A stretch of DNA of 64,000 nucleotides from NCBI GenBank assembly GCA_023265595.1, contig JAHFSU010000003.1:6178-70177 (forward strand), read 5' to 3'. This DNA comes from Deltaproteobacteria bacterium. Lineage in GTDB: Bacteria > UBA10199 > SPLOWO2-01-44-7. Shown here piece after piece: positions 18,681-51,651 of the stretch. The position numbers were made by a program, and so were the translations under genes. How positions within the stretch are numbered: position 1 is the first letter of the stretch; each line of letters begins with the position of its first letter. The notes beneath the pieces were generated by a model. That model did no database searches, had not been told where the DNA came from, and saw only the letters and a program-made list of their open reading frames with translations.

Positions 18681-18707
18681 GAAACGCTGTCTTGTAATTT
18701 GGTTTTT

Positions 18708-34119: not shown

Positions 34120-34176
34120 GATCGCCGAACTGCCTATCCGATATCCTGATTGAAGTCAAATCTCCGCAATCTCCGC

Positions 34177-34210
34177 TACCTGGTAGAAAAGAGGCTTTCC
34201 CTACCAGGTA
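34177..34210. promoter_or_regulatory. Two TACCWGGTA palindromes (34177-34185, 34202-34210) spaced 25 bp, the same motif and phasing as at 8142-8200.
   Basis: Read directly: cgcTACCTGGTAgaa ... cccTACCAGGTAgaa. They lie about 30-80 bp upstream of motif copy f. Confidence 0.5.
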
Positions 34211-34238
34211 GAAATGACGCTTTGTGTCATTCGGCAGG

Positions 34239-34264
34239 CAACCTTCTTGAAGGAGTGCCGATAA
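34239..34264 (+). promoter_or_regulatory. Copy f of the CAAC-N14-GCCGATAA motif (gCAACcttcttgaaggagtGCCGATAAgaag).
   Basis: Read directly. It ends 8 nt before the ATG at 34273, which implies a leaderless or near-leaderless mRNA. Confidence 0.45.
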
Positions 34265-34272
34265 GAAGTCAG

Positions 34273-37200
34273 ATGCGCAACTGTTTTCTTACATTGGCTT
34301 TGGCCCTTGCCTCGATTTGTTTTTTCTCCTGTTCCGACGGCAAACTCGGTGTCAGCGGCGGTATTACGCCCGATCTGGTCGGTACGCCGGATACTTCGCT
34401 TAGCGTTCATGAGGCTTCGCAGTTGATTGGTGGGCCGGCCGCGCAAGGACGTTTAGGCGATATTCTTCTTTCCAATTCCAAAATCCGCGTCCTTTTTCAG
34501 AAGGCCTCCAAAGATGCCGGCATCGGATCTTTCGGCGGTAATATTTTGGATGCCGATCGTGTGCGGCCCTCCGGCTCGCTCGGTCAGGATCGTTGGCGCG
34601 AACTTTTTCCGCTCGTCAATGTGGAATGGACGGTCAACACCGTCGATTTTATCGTCTTGTCCGATGGAAAAGAGGGCGGCCCTCAAGTTTTAAGAACCGT
34701 CGGCATGCTCGATGTCTACGATTATCTCGATCTCGACTGGATTGCCGACGCCGCCTCTGCGGTATTGGGGCAGCAGATCAATTTCGCCGATCGTTTTGAT
34801 GATCGCCGCGATCCGTTCAATGTCGATCCCTCGCTCAAAAATTTGTACCCGCAAGTGATTACCGACTACACGCTCGAACCGAATACCAACTATGTCAAGA
34901 TGGTAACCACCTTCACGAACCCCTCCAAAAATCCGATTGCGATGCCGGTCGGCGATTTTCTAGTCGGCGGCGGCGAGTTGCAAGTACTGGTGCCGGGCCA
35001 AGGTTTTGCACCGCCCGTCATGACACAGGTGGCACAAACAACTCCCGCCGTGATTTTTGCCGGTTTTCCGGGCGTCGATGTTTCATACGGTTATTTTTAT
35101 GAGTTAGCCGATTTCAAAAAACCGAAAATCAAGGAAGAGGATCCCGATGAGCTCTACACGACCACGGCTCTTAGCTATTCCGGCGTCACCGGCGTTTTGC
35201 TCGGAGAAGAATTTTTGAAAATCCTGCCGATCGGAATGCATGCAGCGCCTGAAATACATTTTGTGATTCCGCCGGAAAGTGAACGGAGCATCACCCGTTA
35301 TTTTGTCATTGGTGACGGATCGGCCGGTTCCGTGCTTGATACCGGACTCGTGATTTTGAAAGTCCCCACATCGACATTGTCAGGACAAGTGGTGGCCGGC
35401 AGCGGGGCCCCCGTTTCGGGAGCGACCGTTGCAGTGAAAAAATTGGGAGGTCCGACCGTGGTGACCTATACAACCGATGTGACAGGTCATTTTCACGGAA
35501 AGTTGCCGAAAGGTTCCGATCTGGTCGGAAAAACATTTGGTGATGGGCAATACGAAGTTTGGGTTAACAAAGAAGGGTATCATCAAAATACAACCGGCCG
35601 GGCGGGGACTTGTTCTCCCGCAAAAATTGATGTGACGCAAATGGCGGGTGTGCAGATTTCTTGTACATTAGGCGAAGTCGGATTTGTGCAATTAAGTGGT
35701 ATAACGGATGCCTCAACAGGGACGAATATTGCGTCACGATTGACCATTGTCGGCATTGACCCCTCGCCGGAAACGGAAGGCGCCGGCACTTTTTCAGACA
35801 CAAGCGTTTTTACGAGGCCCTTCGGTATTATTGATGCGAAAATTATCAATGTCAGAGGAGGGATCGGTTTGAGCGCCAAAAACATTTTTGAGCTGGAACC
35901 GGGAAACTACAAATTTGTTTTCTCACATGGGCCCGAATATTCCATTTTTGAAAAGGATGTTGTTGTGGGAGCCAGCGCCACAACGGTTATTCCCCCGGTT
36001 GTCCTCAAAAAAGTCATCTCTACACTCGGTTTTATCTCCGCCGATTTTCATGTCCATGCTCTGAACAGCCCCGACAGCGCTTTTAGCGTAGAGCGTCGGG
36101 CTTTAACGGCTGTTGCCGACGGTTTGGATGTGCTCCACAGCTCTGATCACGATTTTTTGACCGACTATGCCCCCGTGGTGGGCGAGTTGGTACAAGAGGG
36201 CTGGCTTACATCGGGGAGTGTGCAAACGATTGTCGGAGATGAAATTACACCGAATCAATATGGCCATCTGCATGCCTTTCCGTTAACGATCGATCCGGAA
36301 GATGTCGATCATGGTGCGCTCGACTGGTCGATGCATCCGTTGGATGAGGTCTCCACCGCTCCGGATTATGCACTTTCACCGCGTGAAATTGGGAACGAAG
36401 TCTTTCAAGATCCGGGTGAAGAGGTGTTTCAGGTCAACCATATTTCAGATAACCCAACCGGTTTGCCGGTGGCTACCGGTTGGCTGACAACCCCCATTTA
36501 CCGGAAAAAATTCGGCGTGCCGGCTTTCGTTTCTTACGCGGATCCGATTGAAAGGCGGCTCACCGCCCCAACCAACCGTCCGCCTGTCCCTCCTTATACG
36601 ATGTCGGAATCGGAGTTGATTTTTGACAATTTTACCGCAGTGGAATTGGTGATCGGCGCCAATCTCAAAACGAATCAACTTTGGGAATCGGCGCTTCCCA
36701 CATGGTTTAATCTTCTAAATTTGGGGCTCATGCCGACCGCGACCGGCGACTCCGACAGCCATCATGAAATTTCGGTGCCGCTGGGACTCCCGAGAAATTA
36801 TATTGCGATGCCTGTCGATCCGAGGGACGGGCTCGGAGAGAGTTTTGATGACATCAACGAAGAGGTTTATGCCCACAGCATTAATGAGCATCATGTCGTG
36901 GTTTCTGCGGGGCCGTTTATTACCGTCACGGCAAAAAATGAAAAAGGGAAATCGGCGGGTGTGGGTGATGTGATCCGCGGCCATTCGATAAAATTTGATA
37001 TTAAAGCGGAGGCCCCCGATTGGGCATGGTTTGATACGATCGAAATTTACGCCAATACCGAACCGTTGCCGGCGGAAGACAGCGGGCGTTTTGCCATGCG
37101 TGGCGAGGCCGAAACGCCATCCGGTTTTGCGGCGCCTTACCATATTCCTCGTTATACTTATGATGCGATTCAAAAATACAAATTGTCTGACGGGTCGCTG

Positions 37201-37563
37201 AAAAATTTCAAAAAGAAAGACGGCAAAATTACAGCCGAGGTGGAAGTGACGATGAACGTCAACGAAGATACGTGGATGGTGGTTGCCGTCAAGGGAACTC
37301 CGGGGACGGAAGGGTATCGGTCCTTATATCCGATGGTTCCTGACGCCTTCAAAGACGGGAAGAAAAAACCGGAAAATATGGATCCGCTTGATTTGGAGGC
37401 ATTATACAAAGACGAAAATCTCGGCGCTGCCGCTTGGGCTTTTACCAATCCGATTTTTATCGATGTCGATGGGGATGCCGACGGGGATGGCTTTCCTTTC
37501 GAGGCCAAATGGGTTCGTGAAGGATACTCCAAACTTAAGCCCTTTAAACAATTTGTGAAATAG
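34273..37563 (+). CDS. Large secreted lipoprotein (about 1096 aa) with a carboxypeptidase-regulatory-like beta-sandwich and a PHP-type (polymerase/histidinol phosphatase) metal-dependent phosphoesterase-like domain.
   Basis: Signal peptide with Cys (ICFFSCS). PHP-like motifs DFHVHAxNSPDS, SSDHD, GDSDSHH. The ORF-track start at 34150 is rejected because that region carries regulatory motifs. Confidence 0.5.
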   Translation: MRNCFLTLALALASICFFSCSDGKLGVSGGITPDLVGTPDTSLSVHEASQLIGGPAAQGRLGDILLSNSKIRVLFQKASKDAGIGSFGGNILDADRVRPSGSLGQDRWRELFPLVNVEWTVNTVDFIVLSDGKEGGPQVLRTVGMLDVYDYLDLDWIADAASAVLGQQINFADRFDDRRDPFNVDPSLKNLYPQVITDYTLEPNTNYVKMVTTFTNPSKNPIAMPVGDFLVGGGELQVLVPGQGFAPPVMTQVAQTTPAVIFAGFPGVDVSYGYFYELADFKKPKIKEEDPDELYTTTALSYSGVTGVLLGEEFLKILPIGMHAAPEIHFVIPPESERSITRYFVIGDGSAGSVLDTGLVILKVPTSTLSGQVVAGSGAPVSGATVAVKKLGGPTVVTYTTDVTGHFHGKLPKGSDLVGKTFGDGQYEVWVNKEGYHQNTTGRAGTCSPAKIDVTQMAGVQISCTLGEVGFVQLSGITDASTGTNIASRLTIVGIDPSPETEGAGTFSDTSVFTRPFGIIDAKIINVRGGIGLSAKNIFELEPGNYKFVFSHGPEYSIFEKDVVVGASATTVIPPVVLKKVISTLGFISADFHVHALNSPDSAFSVERRALTAVADGLDVLHSSDHDFLTDYAPVVGELVQEGWLTSGSVQTIVGDEITPNQYGHLHAFPLTIDPEDVDHGALDWSMHPLDEVSTAPDYALSPREIGNEVFQDPGEEVFQVNHISDNPTGLPVATGWLTTPIYRKKFGVPAFVSYADPIERRLTAPTNRPPVPPYTMSESELIFDNFTAVELVIGANLKTNQLWESALPTWFNLLNLGLMPTATGDSDSHHEISVPLGLPRNYIAMPVDPRDGLGESFDDINEEVYAHSINEHHVVVSAGPFITVTAKNEKGKSAGVGDVIRGHSIKFDIKAEAPDWAWFDTIEIYANTEPLPAEDSGRFAMRGEAETPSGFAAPYHIPRYTYDAIQKYKLSDGSLKNFKKKDGKITAEVEVTMNVNEDTWMVVAVKGTPGTEGYRSLYPMVPDAFKDGKKKPENMDPLDLEALYKDENLGAAAWAFTNPIFIDVDGDADGDGFPFEAKWVREGYSKLKPFKQFVK

Positions 37564-37590
37564 TCATAAATTTGCTATTTTGCCCCCCAA

Positions 37591-40587
37591 ATGCGCAAAA
37601 TCTTTTTTGGGGTTTTTTTTCTCTTTTCCGGTTTTTTATTTATTCCTCAAACCGTTTCAGCGGGTCTTTTTTATCCTTTTTACGGTTGGCGCACCATAAA
37701 CACCCAACATTTTTCAATCCATTATCATCAGGATTCCGAGGCGGTTGCCAAAAAAGCGGCCGGTTATTTTGAAGAGGTCTATGAAAAACTGACACCGCAA
37801 TTTCATTGGAAACCCTGGGGAAAAACGGAAGTCATTTTGACTGATAATAATGATGAATCCAACGGTCTGGCCAGCACGCTCCCCTACAACTGGCTTTTGT
37901 TACGCATTGTCCCTCCCGAACCGGAAAGCTCTCTTTCTACTTATGATGACTGGTTGAAATTACTCATTACACATGAATTTACACACATCCTGCATCTCGA
38001 TGCCTACGGCGGTTTTTGGAAACCGTGGCATTATCTCTTCGGAAAATTGATTGCCCCGGCCGGCTTGACGCCGAATTGGGTCAAAGAAGGGATGGCCACG
38101 TTAGAAGAAACGGAGGAGACCGAAGGAGGACGCGGTCGTGCGGCATACAGTGAAATGCTGGTCCGAACCGCCATTTTACAAAACCAGTTTCCTTCCATCG
38201 ATCGAGCCGATGGTTTGCAGTGGAAATGGCCTGCGGCACAGACCCAATACATTTTCGGCGTCAAATTTTTGCAATATCTTGAAAAACGTTTTGGAAAAGA
38301 AAAATTGATGGAATTCAACCGGGTCACCCAGCATTCCGTGCTGGTCAGCGCAGTTAACCACGCCGCAAAAAAGGCCTTTGGAGAAAGTTTCTACAAATTG
38401 TGGAGAGAGTGGCAGGAAGATTTGCGCAAGGAATATGCGGCTTGGGAAGAGACTGTCAAAAAAGAGGGGATCACCGAAACGGAAAAATTTATTGAAGGAA
38501 AAAAATACGACTCTTTTTATCTCCCGACTTTTTCAAAGGACGGAAAATGGCTTGCTTTCGTAGTGACCAACCCGAAACGGGCGCCGGTTTTATGGCTGAA
38601 AGATGTGGAGACCGGAAAAAAAAAGAAAGTTTCGGCGCAAATTCCCAGCCAAATTTCTTTTGCACCCGATGGAGAATCCCTGATCTTTTCATCCGTCTCC
38701 ACCTATAAAAGCCGCTATCGCTATTATGATCTTTACCGCTACGATATCAAAAACGAAAAATTGAAAAGGCTGACACACGGCGCCCGCGCGAAAGATCCCG
38801 ATTTTACGGCCGATGGTAAGAAAATCCTTTTTTCGGCAAGCAAGAATGGAACAGACACTCTTAAACTGTATGATGTGGAAACCAAGGAAATTACCGATCT
38901 GGTTTTGCCCCCCGAACCGTTTACGCAATTTGCAAACATGCGCTATTCGCCGGATGGCTCTCATTTTGCCGTGGTTCGCTTTAAAAATCAGGTCGGGTGG
39001 GAATTGGCGGCCTACAATAGCGATGGTTCCTTTAACCGCCGGATTACAAAAACCGGCCTTCCTGTCGAATCGAGGCCGACGTGGACAGCCGATGGACGGT
39101 TTATCATTTATAGTTCGGATGAGGATGGGGTGAATAATTTTTATCTTTATGACTGGCAGACACAAACGAGAAAGCGTTTGACCCGAGTGACAACCGGTGT
39201 TTTTGAACCGACCCTCGGTGAAGAAGGCAAAACGTTGCTAGCGCGTTATTACAATGGCGAGGGGTATGCTATTCGAAAAATCCCCATGGGACCATGGACC
39301 ATGGACCCCGCCACACTGCGGACGGGCAGGCAGAGACCAGAGACCAAAAAACAAAAAAAAGAATCCGTTGATAAAGATGAAACAGATGACTCCGGTCATG
39401 GTGAGCCTGTCGAACCATCCACGATCCACGATCCACGAAAATACAGTCCCTTCGGCAAATCTCTTTTTCTGCCGCGATTTGTTCTCCCCGGTTTCGCCTT
39501 TTTGGATGACGGTGTTTTGGCAACCGCAGCGACCGGTGGCAACGATCCTTTACGTTATCATAACTGGAATGGGGGAATCAGCTATCGAAGCGGCGCCGGC
39601 TATCTCGGTTATTTTGGGCGTTATGCTTATGCCCATTATCTTCCCATTTTGGGGGTGGGGATCAATGCGAGCGCCGTCGATTATGGAACATTAAGATTTT
39701 CAACCGGAAATTCGTATCATTTTTATGAAGAGCGGCGCAATACAAATGGATTTATTTCTCTCCCGATCGGGACGAGACAAGCCGTGGGGGCCGCCTATTT
39801 TTTTGAAAATCGTTCCCCCATTACGAATATTTTGTCGAATGAAGCGGCGGCCCTAAATTTGGGACACTACGCCGGCTTTGGCGCCACCTATGTTTTTGGG
39901 GAGACGGAGGCTTATCCCGCCTCGATCAGCCGGCCCGAAAAAGGGACGAAACTTCGTTTGAGTCTTATTGCCTCAGATGCCCGTCTCGGTTCTGCGGAAA
40001 AAAATGAACAGCGCGTTTACATGGGGGACATGCGCGAATATCTCCCGTTAGGTAATAATCATGTCATTGCGCTGCGTGCGGCCGGTGGTTTTGCGCAGGG
40101 GGATCGCTTTGTTCCGGGGACCTTCACTTTGGGGGGTGATTTGGGAGAAGGGACGCTGACCGCTCCACCCGGCGGGAGCTACTTTAGTTTAAGGGGTTTG
40201 CCTGTGGCGGCGTTCAGCGGAGATCGTGCGATGGTTTTGTCGGGTGAATATCGTCTCCCGATTATCTCTCCGCAACACGGCCCCGGCACATGGCCCTTTT
40301 TTGTGGAGAATCTTCACATCGGTTTTTTTGCCGATTATGGCGACACATGGAGTAAAACACAAAACGATCACAATAGCTGGGGGAATTTTTTTGATAAATT
40401 TATGCTGGGTGTTGGAACGGAATTGCGCGGGGATTTTATCGTCGGACACGGATTGCCCATTACCGGGCGTTTTGGTTATGCGATTATTGTGAACAACCGG
40501 AATCGCTTGGCCGGCCTGCTGGATCCGATTACGGGATCGGGCATCCGTAATGGTATCTTTATTTTGCAATTTGGGACGCCGTTTTAA
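37591..40587 (+). CDS. Outer-membrane-type protein (998 aa) with an N-terminal HExxH zincin-like region (HEFTHILH), TolB-like beta-propeller repeats, and a C-terminal beta-barrel-like domain ending in Phe.
   Basis: SPase I signal (VSA-GL). WD40-like 'DGKxLxF' repeats. A C-terminal alternating hydrophobic pattern with terminal F. Confidence 0.5.
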   Translation: MRKIFFGVFFLFSGFLFIPQTVSAGLFYPFYGWRTINTQHFSIHYHQDSEAVAKKAAGYFEEVYEKLTPQFHWKPWGKTEVILTDNNDESNGLASTLPYNWLLLRIVPPEPESSLSTYDDWLKLLITHEFTHILHLDAYGGFWKPWHYLFGKLIAPAGLTPNWVKEGMATLEETEETEGGRGRAAYSEMLVRTAILQNQFPSIDRADGLQWKWPAAQTQYIFGVKFLQYLEKRFGKEKLMEFNRVTQHSVLVSAVNHAAKKAFGESFYKLWREWQEDLRKEYAAWEETVKKEGITETEKFIEGKKYDSFYLPTFSKDGKWLAFVVTNPKRAPVLWLKDVETGKKKKVSAQIPSQISFAPDGESLIFSSVSTYKSRYRYYDLYRYDIKNEKLKRLTHGARAKDPDFTADGKKILFSASKNGTDTLKLYDVETKEITDLVLPPEPFTQFANMRYSPDGSHFAVVRFKNQVGWELAAYNSDGSFNRRITKTGLPVESRPTWTADGRFIIYSSDEDGVNNFYLYDWQTQTRKRLTRVTTGVFEPTLGEEGKTLLARYYNGEGYAIRKIPMGPWTMDPATLRTGRQRPETKKQKKESVDKDETDDSGHGEPVEPSTIHDPRKYSPFGKSLFLPRFVLPGFAFLDDGVLATAATGGNDPLRYHNWNGGISYRSGAGYLGYFGRYAYAHYLPILGVGINASAVDYGTLRFSTGNSYHFYEERRNTNGFISLPIGTRQAVGAAYFFENRSPITNILSNEAAALNLGHYAGFGATYVFGETEAYPASISRPEKGTKLRLSLIASDARLGSAEKNEQRVYMGDMREYLPLGNNHVIALRAAGGFAQGDRFVPGTFTLGGDLGEGTLTAPPGGSYFSLRGLPVAAFSGDRAMVLSGEYRLPIISPQHGPGTWPFFVENLHIGFFADYGDTWSKTQNDHNSWGNFFDKFMLGVGTELRGDFIVGHGLPITGRFGYAIIVNNRNRLAGLLDPITGSGIRNGIFILQFGTPF

Positions 40588-40703
40588 CTATGGATAATAA
40601 ATCACGGTGTCATTGCGCCTGTCCGCCGGGTGTTTGGCGGAAGCCCCGAAGGGCCGAAACAATCCAGAGGAAATTCGCGAGAGATTGCTTCGTCCTCCTC
40701 ACT

Positions 40704-41984
40704 ATGCTCGGAGTCCTCGCAATGACAACCCTTCCGGCTTTTGCCAACACGCTTCCCCCCAATCTTGCGATTTTGGAAAAAGAGCCGGCCGATTTAAAAA
40801 TAATCGAAAAATTGGTTGACTATCGGTGGTTTGATCAAGCGTTAAAGGCTTTAATAAATTATCCGGATACGGATGAAAAGGCCCTCTTTTTAAAAGCCCG
40901 ATGTTGGATGGGGCTTAAAAGTTACAAAGAGGCCCTCGAATTATTTCACCAACTTGCAGAATCGTCTTCCTCTTTTGAAATGCGTCGCGAGGCCCTTTTG
41001 AAAGAGGCGATGATTTTTGTTCGACTCAAAAAATACGAGGCCGCGTTGGATATCTACAATCGTCTGCTTGAAGAAAATCGCGGGAAAAAAAGAGGGATCA
41101 GAGAAATTGCGAAGCGGGCTTTTAAAACGGCGTTGGAAGCGAAAAAATATGATGAAGGCCTGCTGTTTTTGGGACACTTCAGCGGAGATGAAGCCCGTTG
41201 GTGGCGCGGTTGGTGCCATTTTCGAAAAGAGGAATATGATGCCGCATTAACCTATTGGGATAAAATTTCCAAACGGAGTGATTTTTACCCGCAGACCCTT
41301 TTTTGGAAATCCCAAATTTTCAAAAAAATCAAAAATCCGGAGAAGAGTGATTCTTGTTTTCAGACACTTCTTCAGGAATATCCCTTCCATTATTATAGTT
41401 TTTTGGCTCTTTTTGAAAAAATTCCAAGGAAAAAGGATCGACTCGATCTGATTTCTACCCATTGGTCTGGTGACAGGGATAAATCGAAATGGATGGAGCG
41501 CTATCCACGAACATTTGAAATCGAAGTCAAAAAAGCAGCAAAAAAAAGAGACCTCGATTCCTATTTTGTTTTTGCCGTGATTTGGCAGGAATCCCATTTT
41601 CGCGAATGGGTGGTTTCTCCAAGTGGCGCGATCGGTTTAATGCAGCTGATGCCGCAAACGGCTTTGACATTGGCCCATGCGATTCAATTAAGACATTTTG
41701 ATCTTGTCCAAATTTTGAAACCGGAAATGAACATCAAGCTCGGTTCCCTTTACCTCTCTTTTTTGAAAAAACTTTTTTCCGGCCATCTTCCGCTGGCCGT
41801 TGCCGCCTATAATGCCGGGGAAGAAGCGGTTAGCCGGTGGTTGAGCCTTCGCAAAAAGGATTCTCTCCCGCTGATTATCGAAGAAATCCCTTACGACGAA
41901 ACCCAAAAATATACTAAAAAGGTGCTTTTGGCCCATTGGATTTACCATTGGCTCTACAGAGGGGACGTTCCACCCGTTTTTTGA
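40704..41984 (+). CDS. Lytic murein transglycosylase (SLT domain) with N-terminal TPR-like repeats.
   Basis: SLT catalytic motif (ES...GLMQLMP, AYNAG). Signal peptide from the Met at 40704. The ORF-track start at 40590 was rejected. Confidence 0.75.
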   Translation: MLGVLAMTTLPAFANTLPPNLAILEKEPADLKIIEKLVDYRWFDQALKALINYPDTDEKALFLKARCWMGLKSYKEALELFHQLAESSSSFEMRREALLKEAMIFVRLKKYEAALDIYNRLLEENRGKKRGIREIAKRAFKTALEAKKYDEGLLFLGHFSGDEARWWRGWCHFRKEEYDAALTYWDKISKRSDFYPQTLFWKSQIFKKIKNPEKSDSCFQTLLQEYPFHYYSFLALFEKIPRKKDRLDLISTHWSGDRDKSKWMERYPRTFEIEVKKAAKKRDLDSYFVFAVIWQESHFREWVVSPSGAIGLMQLMPQTALTLAHAIQLRHFDLVQILKPEMNIKLGSLYLSFLKKLFSGHLPLAVAAYNAGEEAVSRWLSLRKKDSLPLIIEEIPYDETQKYTKKVLLAHWIYHWLYRGDVPPVF

Positions 41985-42070
41985 CGCTTTTTGGCACCAC
42001 CGTCAAAAAAATAGGGGGACGTTCCACCAATTTTTTGACGCTTTTTGATGCCACCGTCAAAAAAATGACG
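41961..42070. repeat. Two tandem 53-bp direct repeats, each containing the palindrome TTTTTTGACG-N14-CGTCAAAAAA. Candidate enhancer/activator binding sites upstream of a sigma-54 promoter.
   Basis: Read directly. Repeat 1 overlaps the last 8 codons of the slt gene. Confidence 0.5.
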
Positions 42071-42089
42071 GTTCCGATAGGATCAAAAT

Positions 42090-42105
42090 TGGCATCGATA
42101 TTGCT
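42090..42105 (+). promoter_or_regulatory. Sigma-54 promoter TGGCATC-gata-TTGCT.
   Basis: Matches TGGCACG-N4-TTGCW at 15 of 16 positions, about 45 bp upstream of the ATG at 42149. Confidence 0.55.
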
Positions 42106-42148
42106 AGATAAACGGTGTGGTCTCAATTTTCAAAAAAAGGATAAAATT

Positions 42149-44719
42149 ATGAAAAAAATATTGTTTTTATTGCCTATTTTTATTTTTTTCATGGCCTGTT
42201 CGGAGAAGAGTTCGCAACAGCCTCAGGGGAATGGAGGAGGGGGGAATGGTGGTGCCGAGGGTGGTCCTGTCGTACCGCCACCCGCCGATGGTGGTGGAGA
42301 TCTTCTCCCTCCCGGACCGACTGGGGGAGGTGATGTCGCCATTCTTCCACCGGGGCCGATCGTTGTTATTGAGGAAGATTGTGAAGATAATTTGGATAAC
42401 AATGCCGATGGGGCCACTGATTGCGCCGATGTCCGGTGCGCCCAAAAAGAGGTTTGCCAAGCACCTGCCGGTGGTGGTGGGGGCGGTGGCGGAGCAGGTG
42501 GAATAAACCAGTTGAGTGGTACTGTCACTATGGGTGGTTTGCCGACAGGAATGGGTGGCTTGTCCGGTCAGCTTGGTAACCTTGCACAGCAGTTTTCTGT
42601 TCGAATCGGAGGAGGAGGTGGTGGTGCTCTCCCTCCCGGTGTTATAGTGCCGCCGATACCTCCCATGGGTGGGGCTGGAGGTGGAGCGGGTGGAGGTGGT
42701 GTAGAACCTCCGGTTGCTACAACAGCCTCTTCGAACTGCCCGGAAGATGGAATCTTGGATGTTAAAACAGATATTGAAGTGATGCGTGGCAATGTCAGCA
42801 ATCTAGTGGCCCATAATGAACATGCCGTTATAGAAGGGAGTCTGGTTTTGGAGATTAAACTCATTCCGTGGGTTGCCGGCATCAAAGCCCCGCGCGATCG
42901 TCGTTACAACTACTCTTGGAGATGGTTGACCGACGAAGGTCGTGACTCGGGAGATGCGGCGGACGGTATTATCTCCCCCTCTTTTACTTTCAGAAATGCC
43001 GGCACGAAACATGTCAAGTTGGTTGTGGAAGATACCGAGTGTCAGCATAATGGGAGCAATATTGTCGGTAAGGGACTTGTCGATATTATTGTGAACCATC
43101 CACCAATCACTGCAAACCCTTCCCAAATTATTGTAGTAGGTCCTGCCGGAGAGAATTGTGAACAGCCGGTACAGTCCGTTGAAATTAGTCCTGTTTTGAT
43201 TTCCGGCCAGGCAAGAGTCTCTCCACAACTGGTAGAAGGGTTGCATGCTCCGTATCAGATTCGTTTTGAGGCAAAAGTGAATGGGGCCCTCTCTACGCAC
43301 CCGGGTTATACCTATAATTGGATGGTTGATGATGCCCCGATGCTCAATGCCGTTGCCGGAAATAGAAACAATATTTCAAACACATTTAACGATTTGGGTT
43401 TTCATCAAGTCAATGTGACCGTGACCGACAACTGTGGCAATTCGGCCTATGATCCGATCCGGATTGTCCCCGGAGAAGCGCCTCCCCCTGCAGCTCAAGC
43501 GGCATGTACAGACTGCAAACCGGAGTGGGAGAAATTTGATATAGGTTCTGGTATTCACCAGTTGACCGTGGCCAGCGGCGACAATATTGCCGTGATGGTT
43601 GCTGTGACACCACTTCGTAAAAATGTCTTCTATCTCCTTTTTGATTTGCAGAATCGGCGTTTTGTTTCCGATTGGAAACCGTTTGAAAAATTATCTCAAG
43701 TGACCTGCGATGCAAACACACCGGTTCAGTTTGATAAACCCTCCGTGGCCGTCACAAAAAATGGCAACAAATTTATTGTCACGATGGAAAAAGAATGTGG
43801 CAACGACAGGAACAACGTTTTTTATGAGAAATTTACAAAACAGGCCGATGGTACTTACCGAGAGGGGGATCCCGATTACATGGGCCAGCGCGGCAATAAA
43901 TGGACGCCGGTTGCAATGGTCAATGATAACAACGATTTTGCCATCAGCTGGCTTTTTGAGGAGATTAATGAGCCAAAGCTACTTCAAAATACCCGATTTA
44001 ATTATAAAGTCCAAAAAGCCTATTTTAAAATTCTCAAATCAAATGGAGGTCAAATCGGTCCCTCCCGTTTTGTCACAACATGGTGGCAGGGGGGATGGCA
44101 TGAGCCCGATTTTGAAAACCGTAATGTGGTTAACGAAGAGCTGGAAAGAAGGCTCAAAGGGACGGCGTCCGGGAACAGTTTTTGCGCTAGTTTCAGAAGA
44201 ATTTTGAAAAATAATTACGGCACTTCCGTTCTTTCCGATAAAAGTGAATTGGTCTGCGTGAATGCAAATGGAGACCTCAATATGCGGGATACAAACAGTT
44301 TTCGTCTGGATACCCCCGCATTGGCCTCTGCAAAATTCGCGGCAGGAAACATGCTCGTTGCTGTTGGGATCCAAAGCGACGGCAGATTGAAATTTGATAC
44401 ATGGCTCGGCAATGAAAAGAAAGCTTATTACACAGTAAGCCAAAATTGGCCCGATACGGTTGGTAATATCACGGCCCTCAATTCTTACGGATTGCTTCAA
44501 GTCATCTTGAGTAATCCGTCGGGGAACACCGTTATGGTTTTTCATCCGGGAGCTGTTGGTTCCGATAATGCCAATACAATGATTCCCGGCCACGCCTTTA
44601 GTGTTCCTGGCGCCAATCTAAGCAATACTGTCTATTCCGCCGATCAAAACCGCCACGCCATCAGTGTTTGGGTGCAAAACAACGTTGCTTGGGGGATCAC
44701 CGGTTCGGTTGAGCCATAA
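42149..44719 (+). CDS. Large lipoprotein with Gly/Pro-rich low-complexity linkers and PKD-like domains.
   Basis: Lipobox-like FMAC. Poly-Gly tracts. PKD-like strands (FTFRNAGTKHVKLVVEDTECQ, HQVNVTVTDNCGN). Confidence 0.5.
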   Translation: MKKILFLLPIFIFFMACSEKSSQQPQGNGGGGNGGAEGGPVVPPPADGGGDLLPPGPTGGGDVAILPPGPIVVIEEDCEDNLDNNADGATDCADVRCAQKEVCQAPAGGGGGGGGAGGINQLSGTVTMGGLPTGMGGLSGQLGNLAQQFSVRIGGGGGGALPPGVIVPPIPPMGGAGGGAGGGGVEPPVATTASSNCPEDGILDVKTDIEVMRGNVSNLVAHNEHAVIEGSLVLEIKLIPWVAGIKAPRDRRYNYSWRWLTDEGRDSGDAADGIISPSFTFRNAGTKHVKLVVEDTECQHNGSNIVGKGLVDIIVNHPPITANPSQIIVVGPAGENCEQPVQSVEISPVLISGQARVSPQLVEGLHAPYQIRFEAKVNGALSTHPGYTYNWMVDDAPMLNAVAGNRNNISNTFNDLGFHQVNVTVTDNCGNSAYDPIRIVPGEAPPPAAQAACTDCKPEWEKFDIGSGIHQLTVASGDNIAVMVAVTPLRKNVFYLLFDLQNRRFVSDWKPFEKLSQVTCDANTPVQFDKPSVAVTKNGNKFIVTMEKECGNDRNNVFYEKFTKQADGTYREGDPDYMGQRGNKWTPVAMVNDNNDFAISWLFEEINEPKLLQNTRFNYKVQKAYFKILKSNGGQIGPSRFVTTWWQGGWHEPDFENRNVVNEELERRLKGTASGNSFCASFRRILKNNYGTSVLSDKSELVCVNANGDLNMRDTNSFRLDTPALASAKFAAGNMLVAVGIQSDGRLKFDTWLGNEKKAYYTVSQNWPDTVGNITALNSYGLLQVILSNPSGNTVMVFHPGAVGSDNANTMIPGHAFSVPGANLSNTVYSADQNRHAISVWVQNNVAWGITGSVEP

Positions 44720-44770: not shown

Positions 44771-45388
44771 ATGTTATTTCCAAAGGGAAAAGAGTTTTTC
44801 GAGAGAATCGATCTCATCGCCCAAAATGTTTTGGAGTCGGCGAAGGCCCTTCAGGATTTTATTGCCAACTCCCCCACCTCGGCAGCCAAACTCAAAGTTT
44901 TAGAAGACAAGGAACATGAAGGGGATCGTTTGACCCACGATGTGATTGAGCTTCTCAATAAAACTTTCATCACGCCGCTCGACCGCGAAGATATTCACGA
45001 GCTCGTCAGCGCCATGGATGATATTCTCGATTATATTTTCGGGAGCGCGGACAGGATGGTTTTGTATAAAATTCCCTACATTAGCGACGAGTTTAAAGCC
45101 CTGTCGCGCGTGCTCGTGCGCACGGCAGAAGAGGTTGCCAAGGCGGCCCTCCGGCTCAAAGATTTGAAAAATTCCCAAATGATTTTGGCCCAGTGCATTG
45201 AAATCAACCGCATGGAGAATGAGGCTGATGAAGCGCATCGCCATGCGGTGGCCATGTTGTTCGAAAAAGAAAAAGACCCCGTCAACATTATCAAGATCAA
45301 GGAAATTTTGGATCACATGGAGACGGCCACCGATCGTTGTGAAGATGTGGCCAATGTGATCGAATCGATCGTCCTTAAAAATGCCTGA
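44771..45388 (+). CDS. DUF47/PhoU-like phosphate-transport regulator (YkaA-type).
   Basis: 205-aa helical protein with characteristic pairing to the PiT gene. N-terminus MLFPKGKEFFERID is typical of the TIGR00153 family by recall. Confidence 0.65.
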   Translation: MLFPKGKEFFERIDLIAQNVLESAKALQDFIANSPTSAAKLKVLEDKEHEGDRLTHDVIELLNKTFITPLDREDIHELVSAMDDILDYIFGSADRMVLYKIPYISDEFKALSRVLVRTAEEVAKAALRLKDLKNSQMILAQCIEINRMENEADEAHRHAVAMLFEKEKDPVNIIKIKEILDHMETATDRCEDVANVIESIVLKNA

Positions 45389-46385
45389 GACCTCTCTCAT
45401 CATTTTGGCCGGGTTCATTTCGATAGCGCTCGCTTTCGATTTTATAAACGGCTTTCACGATGCCGCAAACTCTATCGCCACCGTTGTTTCTACGCGTGTG
45501 TTAAGTCCGCGCATGGCGGTTGTCTGGGCCGCTTTTTTTAATTTTGCGGCGGCGTTTGCTTTTGGCACGGCCGTCGCCAAAATGATTGCGAAGGGAATCG
45601 TGGTGCCGGAATTTATCACGGTCAACGTGGTGGTCTGCGCATTGGTTGGTGCCATCGTCTGGGACTTGATCACCTGGTGGCGGGGGCTGCCGACCAGTTC
45701 TTCGCACGCGCTGATCGGCGCCTTTGCGGGGGCGGCGGTTGCGCAATCCGGTTTTCAGGCGATTGAATTTTCCGGCCTCAACAAAGTGATGGCCGCCATT
45801 TTGCTCTCCCCTGCAATCGGGATGTTTTTCGGGTTTTTGCTGATGTGGATAATCAGTTGGCTTTGCCACCGCATGGCACCGGGTTTGGTCGATCAATGGT
45901 TTCGACGATTACAGCTCGTCTCCTCCGCTATTTTTTCTTTTTCGCACGGCTCCAACGATGCTCAAAAAACGATGGGGATCATCGTGGCTCTGCTTATCGC
46001 CACCGGCCATTTACCGAAAAATTCCGGCATTCCGATGTGGGTTATTTTTTCCTGTTATGCGGCTATTGCTTTGGGGACTTATTTTGGCGGATGGAAAATT
46101 GTGAAGACGATGGGAATGAAAATTGTAAAACTCCGTCCCGTCGATGGTTTTTGCGCCGAGACCGGTGGCGGCGTGATTATTTTATTGATGTCTTATTTAG
46201 GAATTCCTGTTTCGACAACTCACACCATCACCGGCGCCATTGTTGGTGTCGGAGCAACACGGCGTCTGAGCGCTGTGCGCTGGGGGGTAGCCGGCCGCAT
46301 CGTATGGGCATGGGTTTTCACCATTCCGGCCGCGGCACTCCTTGCCGCGTTTGCAATGACCCTTTTTCAGTTTGTCGGTATTTGA
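45381..46385 (+). CDS. pitA: Inorganic phosphate transporter, PiT family.
   Basis: GFHDAANSIAT and GSNDAQKTMG duplicated motifs. 334 aa. Confidence 0.85.
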   Translation: MPETSLIILAGFISIALAFDFINGFHDAANSIATVVSTRVLSPRMAVVWAAFFNFAAAFAFGTAVAKMIAKGIVVPEFITVNVVVCALVGAIVWDLITWWRGLPTSSSHALIGAFAGAAVAQSGFQAIEFSGLNKVMAAILLSPAIGMFFGFLLMWIISWLCHRMAPGLVDQWFRRLQLVSSAIFSFSHGSNDAQKTMGIIVALLIATGHLPKNSGIPMWVIFSCYAAIALGTYFGGWKIVKTMGMKIVKLRPVDGFCAETGGGVIILLMSYLGIPVSTTHTITGAIVGVGATRRLSAVRWGVAGRIVWAWVFTIPAAALLAAFAMTLFQFVGI

Positions 46386-46389
46386 TAAT

Positions 46390-47310
46390 CTAAGGCAGCA
46401 GTTTTTCAATCCCCTCAAAAACCGCGATCAAATGGCGGACATTCGAGACAAAATCGATTTTGGCGACATCGATGCTCAACACCGGACCTCGGTACCATTT
46501 CGTCTCTTGCACCACATTCATGAAAAGATGGTAGCGATGGTCCAGGGCTTTAACGAGACGGACCAGTCCATCCGGCAATTCCGGACAGGGTGAGCCAGTC
46601 GAACCATGAACCTTTGCCTTATCCAATTCTTCAGCCCTCTGCCGTTCCCGAATATTACCGAGCAGCGCTTCACTGGAGCCATGCAGAAAAACCATCAAGT
46701 CGGGTCTGGGGAGATTTTCAAAATCTCTTTTGAGGCGGATTTCGATCTCCTCCAACCCCGCGGCGCTTAAAAAAGGAACTTCCATGTCATGATGCAAAAC
46801 TTCGCAAAAAGCGTAACGATCGGCTAATGGCGATCCATCGATGCAGGAAGAGCCCTTCAGATGGGTCACCGCCTGCAACTGCATTTTACGCAGATCGAGA
46901 TAGGCATGCTGGATATCGAGAGCCCCTTTTTCTAGCGATTTTTTGGCGCTCATCCACTGCGGGCTCTCGACCGGATGCGCCTTGTGGATTTCGAGAAAAT
47001 GGTTGATGGCGCCATAATAGGCGCCGAGCGTTCTCTTGGCCGTCTCTTTAGAAGTGGTCAAAAGGTTATGGACCGCATCGTTACCGGGAAGATAATCCTC
47101 AAAACCTTCGTCGGGGAGTTCGAAGAGGGCATTCATCGATGTGTTAAATGCGAGATATTTGACAAGAGAACTTTTGCCGGTGCCGATATTGCCGACACAG
47201 GCGATCAATACTTTATTTTGCGCAAAACGTTCCGTGAGGCGGCGCTCCACGGAAGTCAACCGGTTGGCCAGTTTGTGTTTCGGGATCGTTTCATCGGCAA
47301 CAAGGTTCAT
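46390..47310 (-). CDS. Deoxynucleoside-kinase-family P-loop kinase (paralog 1), with an approximately 30-aa N-terminal extension.
   Basis: Walker A GNIGTGKSS resembling the dNK EGNIxxGKST motif, a DRY motif, and a RERQRAEE lid-like motif. Confidence 0.5.
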   Translation of the reverse strand: MNLVADETIPKHKLANRLTSVERRLTERFAQNKVLIACVGNIGTGKSSLVKYLAFNTSMNALFELPDEGFEDYLPGNDAVHNLLTTSKETAKRTLGAYYGAINHFLEIHKAHPVESPQWMSAKKSLEKGALDIQHAYLDLRKMQLQAVTHLKGSSCIDGSPLADRYAFCEVLHHDMEVPFLSAAGLEEIEIRLKRDFENLPRPDLMVFLHGSSEALLGNIRERQRAEELDKAKVHGSTGSPCPELPDGLVRLVKALDHRYHLFMNVVQETKWYRGPVLSIDVAKIDFVSNVRHLIAVFEGIEKLLP

Positions 47311-48077
47311 AAATTGTTTATCCGGGCGGCAACGATGCGCCTTACTTTTTCACGAATCGTTCCTGCCACCACATGGACATAATCGGGGTGCTCTTCCATA
47401 TCGATTTCGGCCGGCAAGATAATCAGATCGATATCGGAAGGGACGATTGCCATCTCCATATATCGCAGCAAAACTTTTTTCCAGTTGGTAACTAATTGTT
47501 CGTAGCAGTCGTGAATTTCTTTAAGATAGCCCGATGCAATGGAGGCGGCATAACTATCTCCGTCGGCGGCCCTTTTTTCACGCCGCTTCTCGAGCAAGTC
47601 AGGTTCGGAGCGAAGATAGACCATCAGATCGGGCATCCGAATATGTTCATTTTGCAAAATCTGTTTTAAAAGTGTTCGGTAAAGCTTGGCGTGTGCTGAA
47701 GGCATCTCGCCGGACTGGATCATCCGCTGTACGAAAACTTCCGGCCCATCGATGAAAGGGCGATCTTCAATCACAATCACACCGCGGCCATTTTCGCGCG
47801 TCATCAAATGTCTGATTTCCCGTTGTTGTAGAGTGCGCATGTGCAAGAAGGAGATTTCGGTCGGGAAAATATTGGCCACGCGATCGTGATAAAAAAGTTT
47901 GAGACATTCATCGGCCAGCGAACCCTTTTCAACCCTTTCCGAAAAGGCGTGGAGATCGGCATTATCCAAAATCATCGAGAGAGAACTTTTGTAGGGGTCT
48001 TGAGAGAGGGCGTTCATGAGGGTTGTCTTGCCCGAAAACAGATTTCCCATAATGCCGATGTGAAAATTGCGTGTCAT
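47307..48077 (-). CDS. Deoxynucleoside-kinase-family P-loop kinase (paralog 2).
   Basis: Walker A GNLFSGKTT, and DRPF and RSEPDLLEKRREKR lid-like motifs. The ORF extends to 48314 but overlaps the divergent gene and its promoter motif, so the internal Met at 48077 is preferred; start uncertain. Confidence 0.45.
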   Translation of the reverse strand: MTRNFHIGIMGNLFSGKTTLMNALSQDPYKSSLSMILDNADLHAFSERVEKGSLADECLKLFYHDRVANIFPTEISFLHMRTLQQREIRHLMTRENGRGVIVIEDRPFIDGPEVFVQRMIQSGEMPSAHAKLYRTLLKQILQNEHIRMPDLMVYLRSEPDLLEKRREKRAADGDSYAASIASGYLKEIHDCYEQLVTNWKKVLLRYMEMAIVPSDIDLIILPAEIDMEEHPDYVHVVAGTIREKVRRIVAARINNL

Positions 48078-48148
48078 AAGGAGGGCGTTTCGCTTCTCTA
48101 TCAAACAGCTGGACAATTTGTCCACTCTGTTTTCACCTTGATTGGAAG

Positions 48149-48174
48149 CAACTTTTTTGAAAGATTGCCGATAA
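48149..48174 (+). promoter_or_regulatory. Copy d of the CAAC-N14-GCCGATAA motif (aaGCAACTTTTTTGAAAgattGCCGATAAcag).
   Basis: Read directly. 24 nt upstream of the ATG at 48199, with an AAGGGA ribosome-binding site in between. Confidence 0.5.
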
Positions 48175-48198
48175 CAGTTAAGAAGGGATGATAAAACT

Positions 48199-49662
48199 AT
48201 GCCACCCGTCGATGGGAATATTGCTTTGGGAATACAAGCAGTTGGGGTGTCTAATTTCACCCTCAGCACCAATCCAACAGCCACTTCCTTATTAACAGAT
48301 GCAATAAATTCCACTGCAGGGTTTCAAAATGTAACTTCTTCATTTGAAACTGTCCCCGATATTCATCAAGCCCAACCCCCTCCTGCTACAAGTTCGGGAT
48401 TGCGATTTTCTGCCACCCATCCCCTAACACAGAATGGGGATTTTTTGGATGAAGAGACTCCATCTCATTTTAACTCTCTGGTTCGCCGAATGGTTTTTGG
48501 GGCGCTCAGTTTTGCTTCGGAACTGGAAAATCTTGTTCTGTTTCTTATCGATCGTTCTCCTCTCACCGCTATCGGATTTTTTGGGCCTCGTTCCGAGAGG
48601 GGGATACCTTGCTCACGCAGAGGAGTTTTTTCTTATCTCGCACAACTCAATCTGTCGAAATACGATTTCAGCGGGAAAATGGTGTTGGATGTGGGAAGTG
48701 GCAGAAGCCGTTTTGCGCAGATCATTGATGTCACTTACAGAGATTCGGGTACGCGTGCCATTCCGGTGGATCTGCTTGTTCAGCCCAAATCGGCTATCGG
48801 AATGAAGGCAGATGCCGTTTCCCTGCCGTTTGGAAGGGGTATGTTTGGTTTAGTAACTAACAACTGGGTTCTTCAACATTTCCTTTTTACCGCAACCGGC
48901 GATTCTATGTTGGAAGAGATGCTCCGCGTCTGCAAGTCGGGAGGGGAAATCCGAGTTTCTTTTCAGAGAGATGAACCATTGGACAAACTGATAGCTTATC
49001 TAGAAAGTCATCCTGCCGTGGAAAGGGTTGTCCAACATTCCAGAGGCATGCTGACCAAATCTATTGAAATTCACCTTCGCAAAGAACCTCCTTCAAAAGA
49101 AAGGCTCGCGGCTTTTTATGAAGATTTGGAAAGAAATGGAATGATTTATGTCCCATGGAGATTAGATGTTTTGGCCCATCGCTCTTCAAGAGCAAGGGTG
49201 ATTGAATTAAGAAGGGGTGGGTTATCGGATCGGTTGGATTATATTGCCGATGTCAGGAGGTTTCTCAATCACGATCCCAGTGATCCTTTTGTTATCGATC
49301 CGGAATATCCAACCGTTTTGGCATCATGGTTTGCTGACTCCCGCGATCATTTTGAATTGAGGAAAAGTATTGTCAGTTTATTTATGGAGTGGGCAGCGTT
49401 GTATCCCCATTTTCAAGAGGCTTGGGATTTGCTGTCCGATTTGGAAAAAAATAGTCTGATGGAATATTGGCTGTTAACGCCTGTTTATAGAGAGTTGCTG
49501 AGGAGATCCCCTGAAAATTATTTTGAGATTTCCGGTGTCTATTCGCCAACCGTTACAGCACTTAGGGACAAGTTAAGTCAAGAGATCAAAACAGCAGCGG
49601 CAATTAGAGAGATAGAATTAGAAGCAAAAGAGCGTTTTGCCGATCCTATGTTTATACGCTAA
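48199..49662 (+). CDS. Hypothetical 487-aa protein with a class I SAM-dependent methyltransferase-like core.
   Basis: Motif I-like VLDVGSGRSRFA and a post-I acidic residue. The remainder is unrecognised. Confidence 0.45.
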   Translation: MPPVDGNIALGIQAVGVSNFTLSTNPTATSLLTDAINSTAGFQNVTSSFETVPDIHQAQPPPATSSGLRFSATHPLTQNGDFLDEETPSHFNSLVRRMVFGALSFASELENLVLFLIDRSPLTAIGFFGPRSERGIPCSRRGVFSYLAQLNLSKYDFSGKMVLDVGSGRSRFAQIIDVTYRDSGTRAIPVDLLVQPKSAIGMKADAVSLPFGRGMFGLVTNNWVLQHFLFTATGDSMLEEMLRVCKSGGEIRVSFQRDEPLDKLIAYLESHPAVERVVQHSRGMLTKSIEIHLRKEPPSKERLAAFYEDLERNGMIYVPWRLDVLAHRSSRARVIELRRGGLSDRLDYIADVRRFLNHDPSDPFVIDPEYPTVLASWFADSRDHFELRKSIVSLFMEWAALYPHFQEAWDLLSDLEKNSLMEYWLLTPVYRELLRRSPENYFEISGVYSPTVTALRDKLSQEIKTAAAIREIELEAKERFADPMFIR

Positions 49663-50990: not shown

Positions 50991-51063
50991 AAAAGTTGAA
51001 AAAAATATGGTTGCTAGGGGGACTTTCCTTTTGATATGTCAGCCGAAGACCAAGGAGGTATTT

Positions 51064-51651
51064 ATGTTTGCGGCAACGCCTATTTTATTCATCGGGACAG
51101 TGGGAAACCAACTCTTGGCATCTCCGGACGGGCTTGAGGTCCTTTTATCTCAACCCGATTTTGATCCCATCAGTTCCATGAGAGAGGTCGATACCGTTGT
51201 TGCCCAAGTTTATCGGAAACTGGGAAAGGAAGGAGATAAGATCAAAGAGGCATTAAAGATAGTTTCACATTTTTCGCTAATTCCTGATGCCTCTGCATCC
51301 GACGCACGCACGGCCTTAGAGAGTTTAGCGTGTTCTTTAAGGAAGATAGATAAAACTAATTTTGAAAAAGCCGCCTCCATGGCCATGCAAACATGCCACA
51401 TGGCTTTTTTGTGGGCTTCTCTCGGCGTTGTCAGGCAAGAGGTGGCAGCCGTTCTTCGTGCTGGCGGAGGAGATCCCGCGGACGACTCTTCCTTGGAAGG
51501 AATCGTGCGGCGCGCAAAAGCCCATCTAGAAAGAGAAGTCATCGAGCGTATTTTGTCAGAAACCGGCGGGAATGTTACGCATGCTGCCCGAAGGCTGGGC
51601 CTTAGCCGACGTGGGTTCCAGGCAAAAATGAAAGAATTTGGATTGCGTTAA
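51064..51651 (+). CDS. Small protein with a C-terminal Fis/NtrC-type helix-turn-helix (HTH_8) but no AAA+ domain.
   Basis: C-terminal ...ERILSETGGNVTHAARRLGLSRRGFQAKMKEFGL matches NtrC-family DNA-binding helices. AGGAGG ribosome-binding site before the ATG at 51064. Confidence 0.55.
   Translation: MFAATPILFIGTVGNQLLASPDGLEVLLSQPDFDPISSMREVDTVVAQVYRKLGKEGDKIKEALKIVSHFSLIPDASASDARTALESLACSLRKIDKTNFEKAASMAMQTCHMAFLWASLGVVRQEVAAVLRAGGGDPADDSSLEGIVRRAKAHLEREVIERILSETGGNVTHAARRLGLSRRGFQAKMKEFGLR

Follow-up and report, generated by a model that had tools for sequence, protein, structure and literature searches.

Four consecutive genes for large exported proteins, occupying positions 34273 to 44719 of a 64,000-nucleotide stretch of contig JAHFSU010000003.1 from a Deltaproteobacteria bacterium of the UBA10199 lineage (the window, meaning here the whole stretch analysed), raise the question of whether they encode one machine or are neighbours with separate roles. 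A preliminary description, made from the letters alone, took them for a single, dedicated and specially regulated apparatus for degrading or remodelling the cell surface. Our analysis instead makes it fairly probable that the region holds two independent transcription units, an envelope-maintenance set of three genes (g1, g2 and g3) and an orphan gene (g4), and not one machine. The products of g1, g2 and g3 are members of families that are already catalogued, and the locus is a lineage-specific arrangement of such families together with one orphan, not a new system. The four genes, and a hairpin at the end of the last, are as follows (aa, amino acids).

34273-37563, forward strand: g1, a 1096-aa lipoprotein with a mutarotase-like supersandwich (about residues 40-350), a CarboxypepD_reg/Ig-like part (about 365-580) and a PHP-type CehA/McbA domain (586-1063).
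37591-40587, forward strand: g2, a 998-aa protein with a signal peptide (1-24), an M1-like gluzincin domain (33-292), a six-bladed TolB-type propeller (298-565), a linker (570-605) and a predicted 16-strand Omp85 barrel (about 632-998).
40590-41984, forward strand: g3, 464 aa as an open reading frame (ORF) and 420 aa in the public gene call, a TPR-rich family-1 (Slt70-like) lytic transglycosylase.
42149-44719, forward strand: g4, an 856-aa lipoprotein with a Gly/Pro-rich low-complexity region, an acidic double-disulfide repeat (78-103), one or more PKD domains (about 358-434) and a C-terminal half to which no domain is assigned.
44702-44715, forward strand: a terminator-like hairpin at the end of g4, a weak match to consensus.

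Public gene calls, made independently for this contig, gave products of 1096, 998, 420 and 856 aa, and thus backed the four consecutive co-oriented genes for large exported proteins of the preliminary description. Its motifs (DFHVHA, SSDHD, GDSDSHH, HEFTH and a terminal Phe) were all located in the translations, and its assignments of PHP, zincin, TolB propeller, barrel, SLT, PKD and CarboxypepD_reg domains held in domain searches and structure models; for g4, the Gly/Pro-rich composition, the PKD domain and the lipobox stood, with the length corrected from 857 to 856 aa. Lipoboxes are present in g1 (FFSC, Cys20) and g4 (FMAC, Cys17), the signal peptide of g2 ends in VSA with the mature chain starting from Gly25, and g3 has an internal signal peptide ending in AFA. 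Because the public call for g3 is 420 aa long, its true start is likely Met39 or Met45 (40704 or 40722). The intergenic gaps are 27 nt between g1 and g2, 2 to 134 nt between g2 and g3, depending on the start of g3, and 164 nt between g3 and g4; GC content in the window is 44-51%.

To compare gene orders, we used a g1 survey, which found 80 genome loci with g1, and a g2 survey, which found 82 metagenome loci with g2 (related loci bear L numbers here). The g1-g2-g3 order was found in about eight loci, all from one subclade (L001/L002, L003/L017, L009, L010, L011, L031, L089 and L090). In the 61% relative (L001/L002) an alanine dehydrogenase gene precedes g1-g2-g3 and pstSCAB-phoU follows, without g4, and L010 is from the same contig, MGRG01000012.1; the 46% relative (L003/L017) has the same order from the alanine dehydrogenase gene to g3, followed by an HD gene. 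Directly 3' of g1 we found g2 in 7 of the 80 g1 loci, 5 of which also contain g3. Four further loci (L028, L029, L030 and L036) have one gene between g1 and g2, a different one each time (TatC-like, AAA ATPase, membrane protein or sugar kinase), of which three lie on the other strand, and in one locus (L024) g2 is inverted and lies upstream of g1. Altogether, the two genes are linked in about 11 of about 30 informative UBA10199-type loci, including the four interrupted ones, and g2 is out of reach of g1 in at least 12 others. In the 68% relative L040 (JAUSII010000031.1, 4641-12784), g1 and g2 are separated by about 8 kb with some eight ORFs, although both closer and remoter relatives have them adjacent.

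Each gene also occurs without the other, g1 in L006-L008 and g2 in L004 and L005; no g2 was found within 10 kb of g1 homologues in any Myxococcota locus surveyed, and g1 was upstream of g2 in 3 of the 82 metagenome loci and not in the remaining 79. The order g1-g2-g3 is thus the ancestral arrangement of one clade, and it is decaying. Of the 50 loci whose sequence reaches far enough, 6 have a TPR-SLT gene directly 3' of g2, down to 27% identity; in L094, L096 and L107, such genes are of Slt70 size (about 700 aa) and adjoin or overlap g2 homologues at the 3' end, these homologues being only 27-29% identical to the g2 of the window. No other envelope gene recurs beside g2 in the 82 loci, and g4 was never seen there, so that the pairing of g2 with Slt is the sole one that recurs more widely. 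ORF clustering over the same loci also brought up an NAD-epimerase, a response regulator and a TerC-like membrane protein as recurrent neighbours of g2, which we discarded as unrelated or as spurious high-GC ORFs.

The fourth gene does not belong to this arrangement. It was absent from all 168 related loci, and in the nearest relatives its place 3' of g3 is taken by pstSCAB or the HD gene. An exhaustive HMMER search of 1.84 billion representative proteins returned five relatives, the rest being matches to PKD or to repeats only, and a word-index search gave one partial relative; residues 21-260 of the product are 23% Gly. We conclude that g4 is a genome-specific insertion unrelated to g1-g3. 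Its absence from the closest relatives, the 164-nt gap that precedes it and its own sigma-54-like site with repeats make it a separate unit, with two elements upstream:

41961-42066, forward strand: two 52-nt direct repeats (41961-42012 and 42015-42066), 54 nt apart, each with the inverted repeat TTTTTTGACG-N14-CGTCAAAAAA; a candidate enhancer (upstream activating sequence) of g4.
42090-42104, forward strand: a sigma-54-type -24/-12 element, TGGCATCGATATTGC, with one mismatch to TGGCAC-N5-TTGC and intact GG and GC, 45 nt upstream of the g4 ATG.

The first repeat copy overlaps the end of g3, both copies sit 25-130 nt upstream of the sigma-54-type site, and an AAGGA Shine-Dalgarno sequence lies between TGGCATCGATATTGC and the g4 ATG (42149). 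The inverted repeat has two matches in the window, as compared with 0.33 expected, and occurs in none of the 88 related loci searched for it. The window contains 11 sites matching at the stringency of TGGCATCGATATTGC, so that a single site is not significant alone; it is its position, together with the upstream repeats, that makes a sigma-54 promoter with tandem activator sites, in a textbook layout, a credible prediction for g4. No gene for an ECF (extracytoplasmic function) sigma factor, an enhancer-binding protein or a Sigma54_activat domain was found among the window ORFs scanned. The sole enhancer-binding-protein-like fragment seen in the window is an ORF of 214 aa (51007-51651) with a C-terminal Fis-type HTH_8 domain and without the sigma-54 activator ATPase domain.

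Upstream of g1 the elements are of another kind:

34176-34211, no strand assigned: two copies of the palindrome CTACCWGGTAG (34176 and 34201), 25 nt apart, 62-97 nt upstream of the g1 start.
34237-34265, forward strand: an element GCAAC-TTC ... CGATAAG (AAC-N16-CGA), ending 8 nt before the g1 ATG.

The palindrome occurs five times in the window, as compared with 0.06 expected, the other three copies being at 8140, 8165 and 8190, and the pair before g1 is a probable binding site for a regulator; among the related loci searched, L009, at 78% identity, is the sole one with this palindrome before g1. Across the window, L009, L040 and L010, the GCAAC-TTC and CGATAAG blocks vary neither in sequence nor in spacing, amid intergenic sequence that otherwise diverges, and AAC-N16-CGA may be an ECF-sigma-like promoter. 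We rejected a sigma-54 promoter before g1, for which the candidate (CGGCAG-N5-CTTC) lacks the -12 GC and is not kept in relatives. The earlier idea of control by sigma factors other than sigma-70 is supported as plausible, in the form of the ECF-like element with the palindrome before g1 and the sigma-54-like site with repeats before g4, the sigma-54-type site being found, among the four genes, at g4 alone.

A perfect sigma-54 consensus, TGGCACGGCACTTGC, was found elsewhere in the window, at 8324-8338, 5' of an ORF (8366-10036) whose 556-aa product has a lipoprotein-like N-terminus, no Pfam match and no similarity to g4. The three remaining CTACCWGGTAG copies, with 25-nt spacing, and a palindrome CGTCAATTTTTTGACG (8246-8261) lie upstream of TGGCACGGCACTTGC. 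Since CTACCWGGTAG is common to the upstream regions of this ORF and g1, and the half-site TTGACG to those of this ORF and the g4 enhancer, these sequences suggest a small regulon of exported proteins.

The most interesting outcome concerns g2, where an invariant peptidase site in a WD40-like Omp85 protein is combined with a recurrent Slt neighbour. In g2 itself, Pfam and NCBIfam detected the PD40/TolB propeller alone (PD40, 2.3e-17): the N-terminal peptidase domain had no Pfam match when scanned singly, and Pfam gave no POTRA match. The score against TIGR02800, the TolB equivalog, was 85.4 bits for a cutoff of 343, with the propeller part alone aligning. We recovered 267 relatives of about 950-1100 aa, the nearest (61-62% identity) in metagenome-assembled genomes (MAGs) named 'Deltaproteobacteria bacterium RIFCSP...' and remoter ones in Nitrospirae, Myxococcota, Gemmatimonadota, Margulisbacteria and Cloacimonadota. 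Many of them are annotated with PF01103 (Omp85) and PF13485 (Peptidase_MA_2), some are named 'BamA/TamA family outer membrane protein', and Pfam matches to Tricorn_N and Tricorn_2nd have been recorded for g2 as well as for homologues. Peptidase_MA_2 matched 10 of 22 family members (best, 4e-7), and a profile of residues 1-296 matched the M1 aminopeptidase 3cia (E-value 0.0036) across the region of the third zinc ligand. The profile of the whole family matched TolB structures (5e-41), BamA (8xnb, 1.8e-6) and a POTRA protein (9ccg, 7e-6).

An AlphaFold2 model of g2 (predicted local distance difference test, pLDDT, 90.3; predicted template modelling score 0.89) has a mixed alpha/beta domain at 33-292, 24 strands in six blades at 298-565, a disordered linker rich in Lys, Glu and Asp at 570-605 and about 16 long strands at 632-994, and Foldseek matched it to TolB (3e-12) and to the BamA barrel (7nre, 2e-9). 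The chain contains HEFTH at 128-132 and ends in FGTPF, with Phe as the last residue. Aligning 63 members, some with an identity as low as 24%, showed H128, E129, H132, E166 (in WxxEG), E173 and R868-G869 to be invariant. The LRGL at 867-870 fits the (V/I)RG(F/Y)-type Omp85 motif, and since it falls between strands in the model this RG would be that of loop 6.

This architecture has a precedent. The WD40-like Omp85 subfamily was catalogued by Heinz & Lithgow 2014 (Front Microbiol 5:370; PMC4104836), with UniProt H1XQ58, D0MEQ5, D5CSQ4 and J1SNQ0 as examples; the supplementary tables list PF01103 with PF07676 repeats and PF00930 for its members, Table S3 gives BamA/TamA, TolB (2ivz, 2w8b) and M1 aminopeptidases (1z5h, 4kxd, 4fgm) as best matches of individual members, and the text names TolB as the structure nearest to the propeller. 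A 2024 paper sums up the subfamily as bearing 'divergent WD40 and peptidase domains' (PMC11358297). By its sequence features, g2 is a member of this subfamily, aminopeptidase-like domain included: compared by described architecture, both have the barrel, the PD40 propeller and the M1-like domain, without POTRA, and we found no architectural difference, although PMC4104836 says nothing of the conserved catalytic site that we observe in the g2 family. Such proteins are widespread (Myxococcota, Nitrospirota, Gemmatimonadota, Margulisbacteria, Cloacimonadota and UBA10199), with Myxococcus xanthus and Rhodothermus marinus among the cultured carriers catalogued, and form one of the few Omp85 subfamilies without a known function; we found no functional or experimental study of any member in the literature.

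An unvarying zinc-peptidase site and the recurrence of an Slt gene next to g2, even in distant lineages, jointly suggest a testable role for WD40-like Omp85 proteins, which would be outer-membrane-tethered periplasmic proteases tied to cell-wall turnover. BepA, an M48 metalloprotease with a TPR domain that works at the BAM complex, offers a functional analogy, as do the tricorn protease, DPP-IV and the prolyl oligopeptidases: g2 would likewise join a zinc peptidase at the outer membrane to an interaction or gating domain. Unlike them, the peptidase of g2 is MA(E)/M1-like, not M48 or serine, and is covalently joined to an Omp85 barrel. Likewise, g2 has the six-bladed PD40 propeller of TolB (Tol-Pal) but lacks its N-terminal TolA-binding domain, is fused to a peptidase and a barrel, and is not a TolB orthologue. 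We see about an even chance that g2 is a zinc peptidase anchored in the outer membrane and facing the periplasm, with the propeller docking its substrates or filtering them.

For g1, Pfam detected CarboxypepD_reg at 368-415, and residues 586-1063 scored 87.5 bits against NCBIfam NF038032 (CehA/McbA family metallohydrolase; cutoff 80) over positions 1-314 of the 315 of the model. The motifs DFHVHA (591-596), SSDHD (623-627) and GDSDSHH (825-831) lie in this domain, and D591, H593, H595, D625, H626, D627, E657, H665, H723, D828 and H830 are invariant in 50 full-length family sequences of 38-68% identity, in which the Cys447-Cys464 pair is also kept and more than 90% have the lipobox Cys20. Profile matches to solved PHP phosphoesterases, including RNase AM and histidinol phosphatase, were weak (E-values 0.027-0.27). 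In the AlphaFold2 model (pLDDT 91), Foldseek matched the N-terminal third to galactose-mutarotase-like supersandwiches (Slr1438, GalM, YidC P1 and accessory domains of GH36/GH38) and the middle part to Ig/pilin-like domains. We counted 262 relatives of g1 in species-representative genomes, at 34-78% identity in UBA10199-type or 'Deltaproteobacteria' MAGs, with three g1-bearing isolates carrying the label UBA10199 and full-length relatives at 25-31% identity in Myxococcaceae, Archangiaceae and Bradymonadales. A Myxococcales MAG has two tandem genes of the family (L055, 9737-16094), with g1-profile scores of 378 and 340.

NCBI already gives homologues of g1 the name CehA/McbA family metallohydrolase. 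Both of the enzymes behind that name are carbamate esterases, and McbA is a periplasmic carbaryl esterase that relies on His residues of its PHP-like domain (PMC8292978). Like them, g1 is exported, has invariant His, Asp and Glu ligands and contains a C-terminal domain above the NF038032 cutoff; unlike them, it is a 1096-aa lipoprotein with added mutarotase-like and Ig-like domains, and its relatives, which belong to uncultured bacteria and to Myxococcota, have chromosomal housekeeping surroundings and not those of catabolic operons for xenobiotics. From its sequence, g1 is predicted to be an extracytoplasmic hydrolase of esters or phosphoesters. Its substrate is possibly glycan-linked, because of the mutarotase-like domain and of the peptidoglycan enzymes beside it in the 44% relative L007 (12378-20702), where a class A penicillin-binding protein follows g1 and Peptidase_M15 and a YkuD L,D-transpeptidase are near. 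This large family of PHP lipoproteins, found in UBA10199 and Myxococcota, is as uncharacterised as the g2 family, so that the earlier remark that no characterised system has this composition needs to be divided: the g2 architecture is catalogued (PMC4104836, Table S3) and the g1 family has a name, but neither has an established physiological role.

The third product is an ordinary Slt-type (family 1) lytic transglycosylase by its sequence, with an SLT domain (PF01464, 4.8e-27) and the motifs QES (333-335), GLMQ (349-352) and AYNAG (406-410). The nearest equivalog-type matches were PRK11619 (Slt) and Borrelia BB0259, with scores under the equivalog cutoffs. As in Slt70, an SLT domain with ES, GLMQ and AYNxG motifs is joined to TPR-like N-terminal helical repeats; unlike Slt70, g3 is short (420-464 aa), its relatives 3' of g2 in other lineages having 700-730 aa.

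Put together as two units, the genes might work as follows, their topology, activities, substrates and promoter function being predicted for g1-g4 alike. The first unit would be a tightly packed set of envelope-maintenance genes, inherited in a subclade of UBA10199-type ('Deltaproteobacteria') groundwater bacteria and presumably serving general envelope turnover instead of a dedicated machine. In g1, the carbohydrate-binding-type supersandwich and Ig-like spacers would present a PHP-fold, multinuclear-metal domain of CehA/McbA type to an ester or phosphoester substrate. The 16-strand barrel of g2 would be its outer-membrane anchor, with the M1-like zinc peptidase and the TolB-type propeller on the periplasmic side, the usual place of N-terminal domains in Omp85 proteins. 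Tricorn, DPP-IV and the prolyl oligopeptidases provide the analogy for a propeller that would dock substrates or filter them, and g2 would then be an outer-membrane-tethered peptidase for the turnover or quality control of periplasmic or outer-membrane proteins. The product of g3 would act as a soluble Slt-type lytic transglycosylase. The second unit would be g4, a lineage-specific orphan lipoprotein with its own sigma-54 promoter and tandem enhancer.

Several points weigh against the two-unit reading. Adjacency of g1 and g2 extends over 44-78% identity and about 11 loci, despite insertions and the inversion in L024, and functional coupling might account for it instead of inertia. The CTACCWGGTAG palindrome ties g1 to another gene for an exported protein (8366), which fits some 'special regulation'. 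As CehA and McbA cleave a carbamate ester, the label 'phosphoesterase' is not assured for g1. The periplasmic side of the g2 passenger domains is an assumption taken from BamA and TamA, while PlpD is an Omp85 protein that exports its own N-terminal enzyme domain; by analogy with it, the enzyme domains of g2 might be displayed on the surface, an alternative that we regard as unlikely. Finally, we found no data on expression, localisation or activity in the literature for any of the four families.

Two further accounts are improbable. According to the first, in the UBA10199-type clade g1, g2 and g3 would form one periplasmic module at the outer membrane, in which g2, as an Omp85-anchored zinc peptidase gated by its propeller, would work with the PHP lipoprotein hydrolase g1 and the lytic transglycosylase g3. 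As cells grow or divide, the three would cut the links that join the outer membrane to peptidoglycan, be they protein, ester or phosphoester, or glycan. If this low-probability account were true, WD40-like Omp85 proteins would have a physiological role for the first time, that of a protease and not of an assembly factor.

The second, equally improbable on our estimate, takes g1 for a phosphate-scavenging extracytoplasmic phosphoesterase of a Pho-type regulon, whose position would reflect phosphate metabolism and not envelope remodelling. The PHP fold is typically a phosphoesterase fold, as the weak profile matches to solved structures also indicate, and phosphate uptake genes adjoin the cluster in three loci, although the systems differ: PhoU_div and PHO4 in the window (44771-46385), pstSCAB-phoU directly after g3 in L001 (14461-18635) and an Na/Pi cotransporter with PhoU, upstream, in L003 (526-2187). 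However, this phosphate link is weak because the whole backbone is syntenic there, including housekeeping genes for alanine dehydrogenase, CoaX, deoxynucleoside kinase and HD protein, so that the linkage may be inertia; no phosphate genes are near g1 in L006-L008, no Pho box was identified, and the CehA and McbA that give the family its name are carbamate esterases (PMC8292978).

The dedicated four-gene apparatus of the preliminary description is now quite improbable. In its favour, g1-g3 are co-oriented and tightly spaced, the products of all four genes are exported, about eight loci retain g1-g2-g3 side by side, and cis elements not of sigma-70 type precede g1 and g4. Conversely, co-conservation in relatives, the check proposed with that description, fails outright for g4, and with g4 in none of the 168 related loci and behind its own putative promoter and the 164-nt gap, the idea is largely refuted for g4; the g1-g2 linkage has been lost in most lineages, with each family widely found alone, and g3 is a generic Slt. 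The duplicated lgt and lspA, cited as nearby genes in favour of the apparatus, are a weak argument: they are about 20 kb away, in a block (10092-15479) in which two lgt paralogues (10092-10895 and 14679-15479; 33% identical) flank ileS-lspA (11366-14667), so that the duplication was borne out for lgt and lspA is single. An ORF at 10880-11353 considered as a second lspA had no Peptidase_A8 match and no similarity to lspA.

That g2 might be a translocator or anchor for the g1 lipoprotein, in a two-partner or Slam-like manner that would put the PHP hydrolase on the cell surface, is very unlikely. Omp85/TpsB or Slam barrels encoded beside cargo genes are precedents for such a pair, and 7 species-level loci have g1 immediately 5' of g2, with 4 others in which a single gene separates the two. 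Nevertheless, g2 has no POTRA domains, its N-terminus is a complete enzyme plus propeller, its family is found in many phyla without a nearby g1 (3 of 82 loci with it), Myxococcota g1 homologues have no g2 within 10 kb, and the invariant gluzincin site argues for catalysis over transport. Both PlpD and FhaC are discussed in PMC4104836. The suggestion made there by Heinz & Lithgow, that WD40-like Omp85 proteins are BamA-BamB-like fusions acting as a platform, would make g2 an assembly factor without a proteolytic role, which is also very improbable: its barrel, loop-6 RG motif and propeller are all present, but the propeller is of the six-bladed TolB type and not the eight-bladed BamB type, POTRA is lacking, and one could hardly account, other than by catalysis, for an HExxH and a third-ligand Glu that do not vary among 63 sequences, some as low as 24% in identity.

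Around the two units preferred here, the upstream flank contains an alanine dehydrogenase gene on the opposite strand, followed by genes for CoaX, a rhodanese, a FadB-like protein, a thiolase and CysS; downstream of g4, the phosphate transporter is followed by two deoxynucleoside kinases, an HD phosphohydrolase, QueC and RecJ. In the distant lgt block, an Rce1-like CAAX protease gene (15476-16123) comes after the second lgt, and the stretch 16284-19954 contains an MMPL/RND-type transporter gene (16284-18680, reverse strand) and then two ORFs of 212 and 203 aa without Pfam match. The deoxynucleoside kinases are tandem paralogues (46390-47310 and 47307-48314, reverse strand) near a dGTPase-like HD/HD_assoc phosphohydrolase (49659-50822), a layout that is kept in L001.

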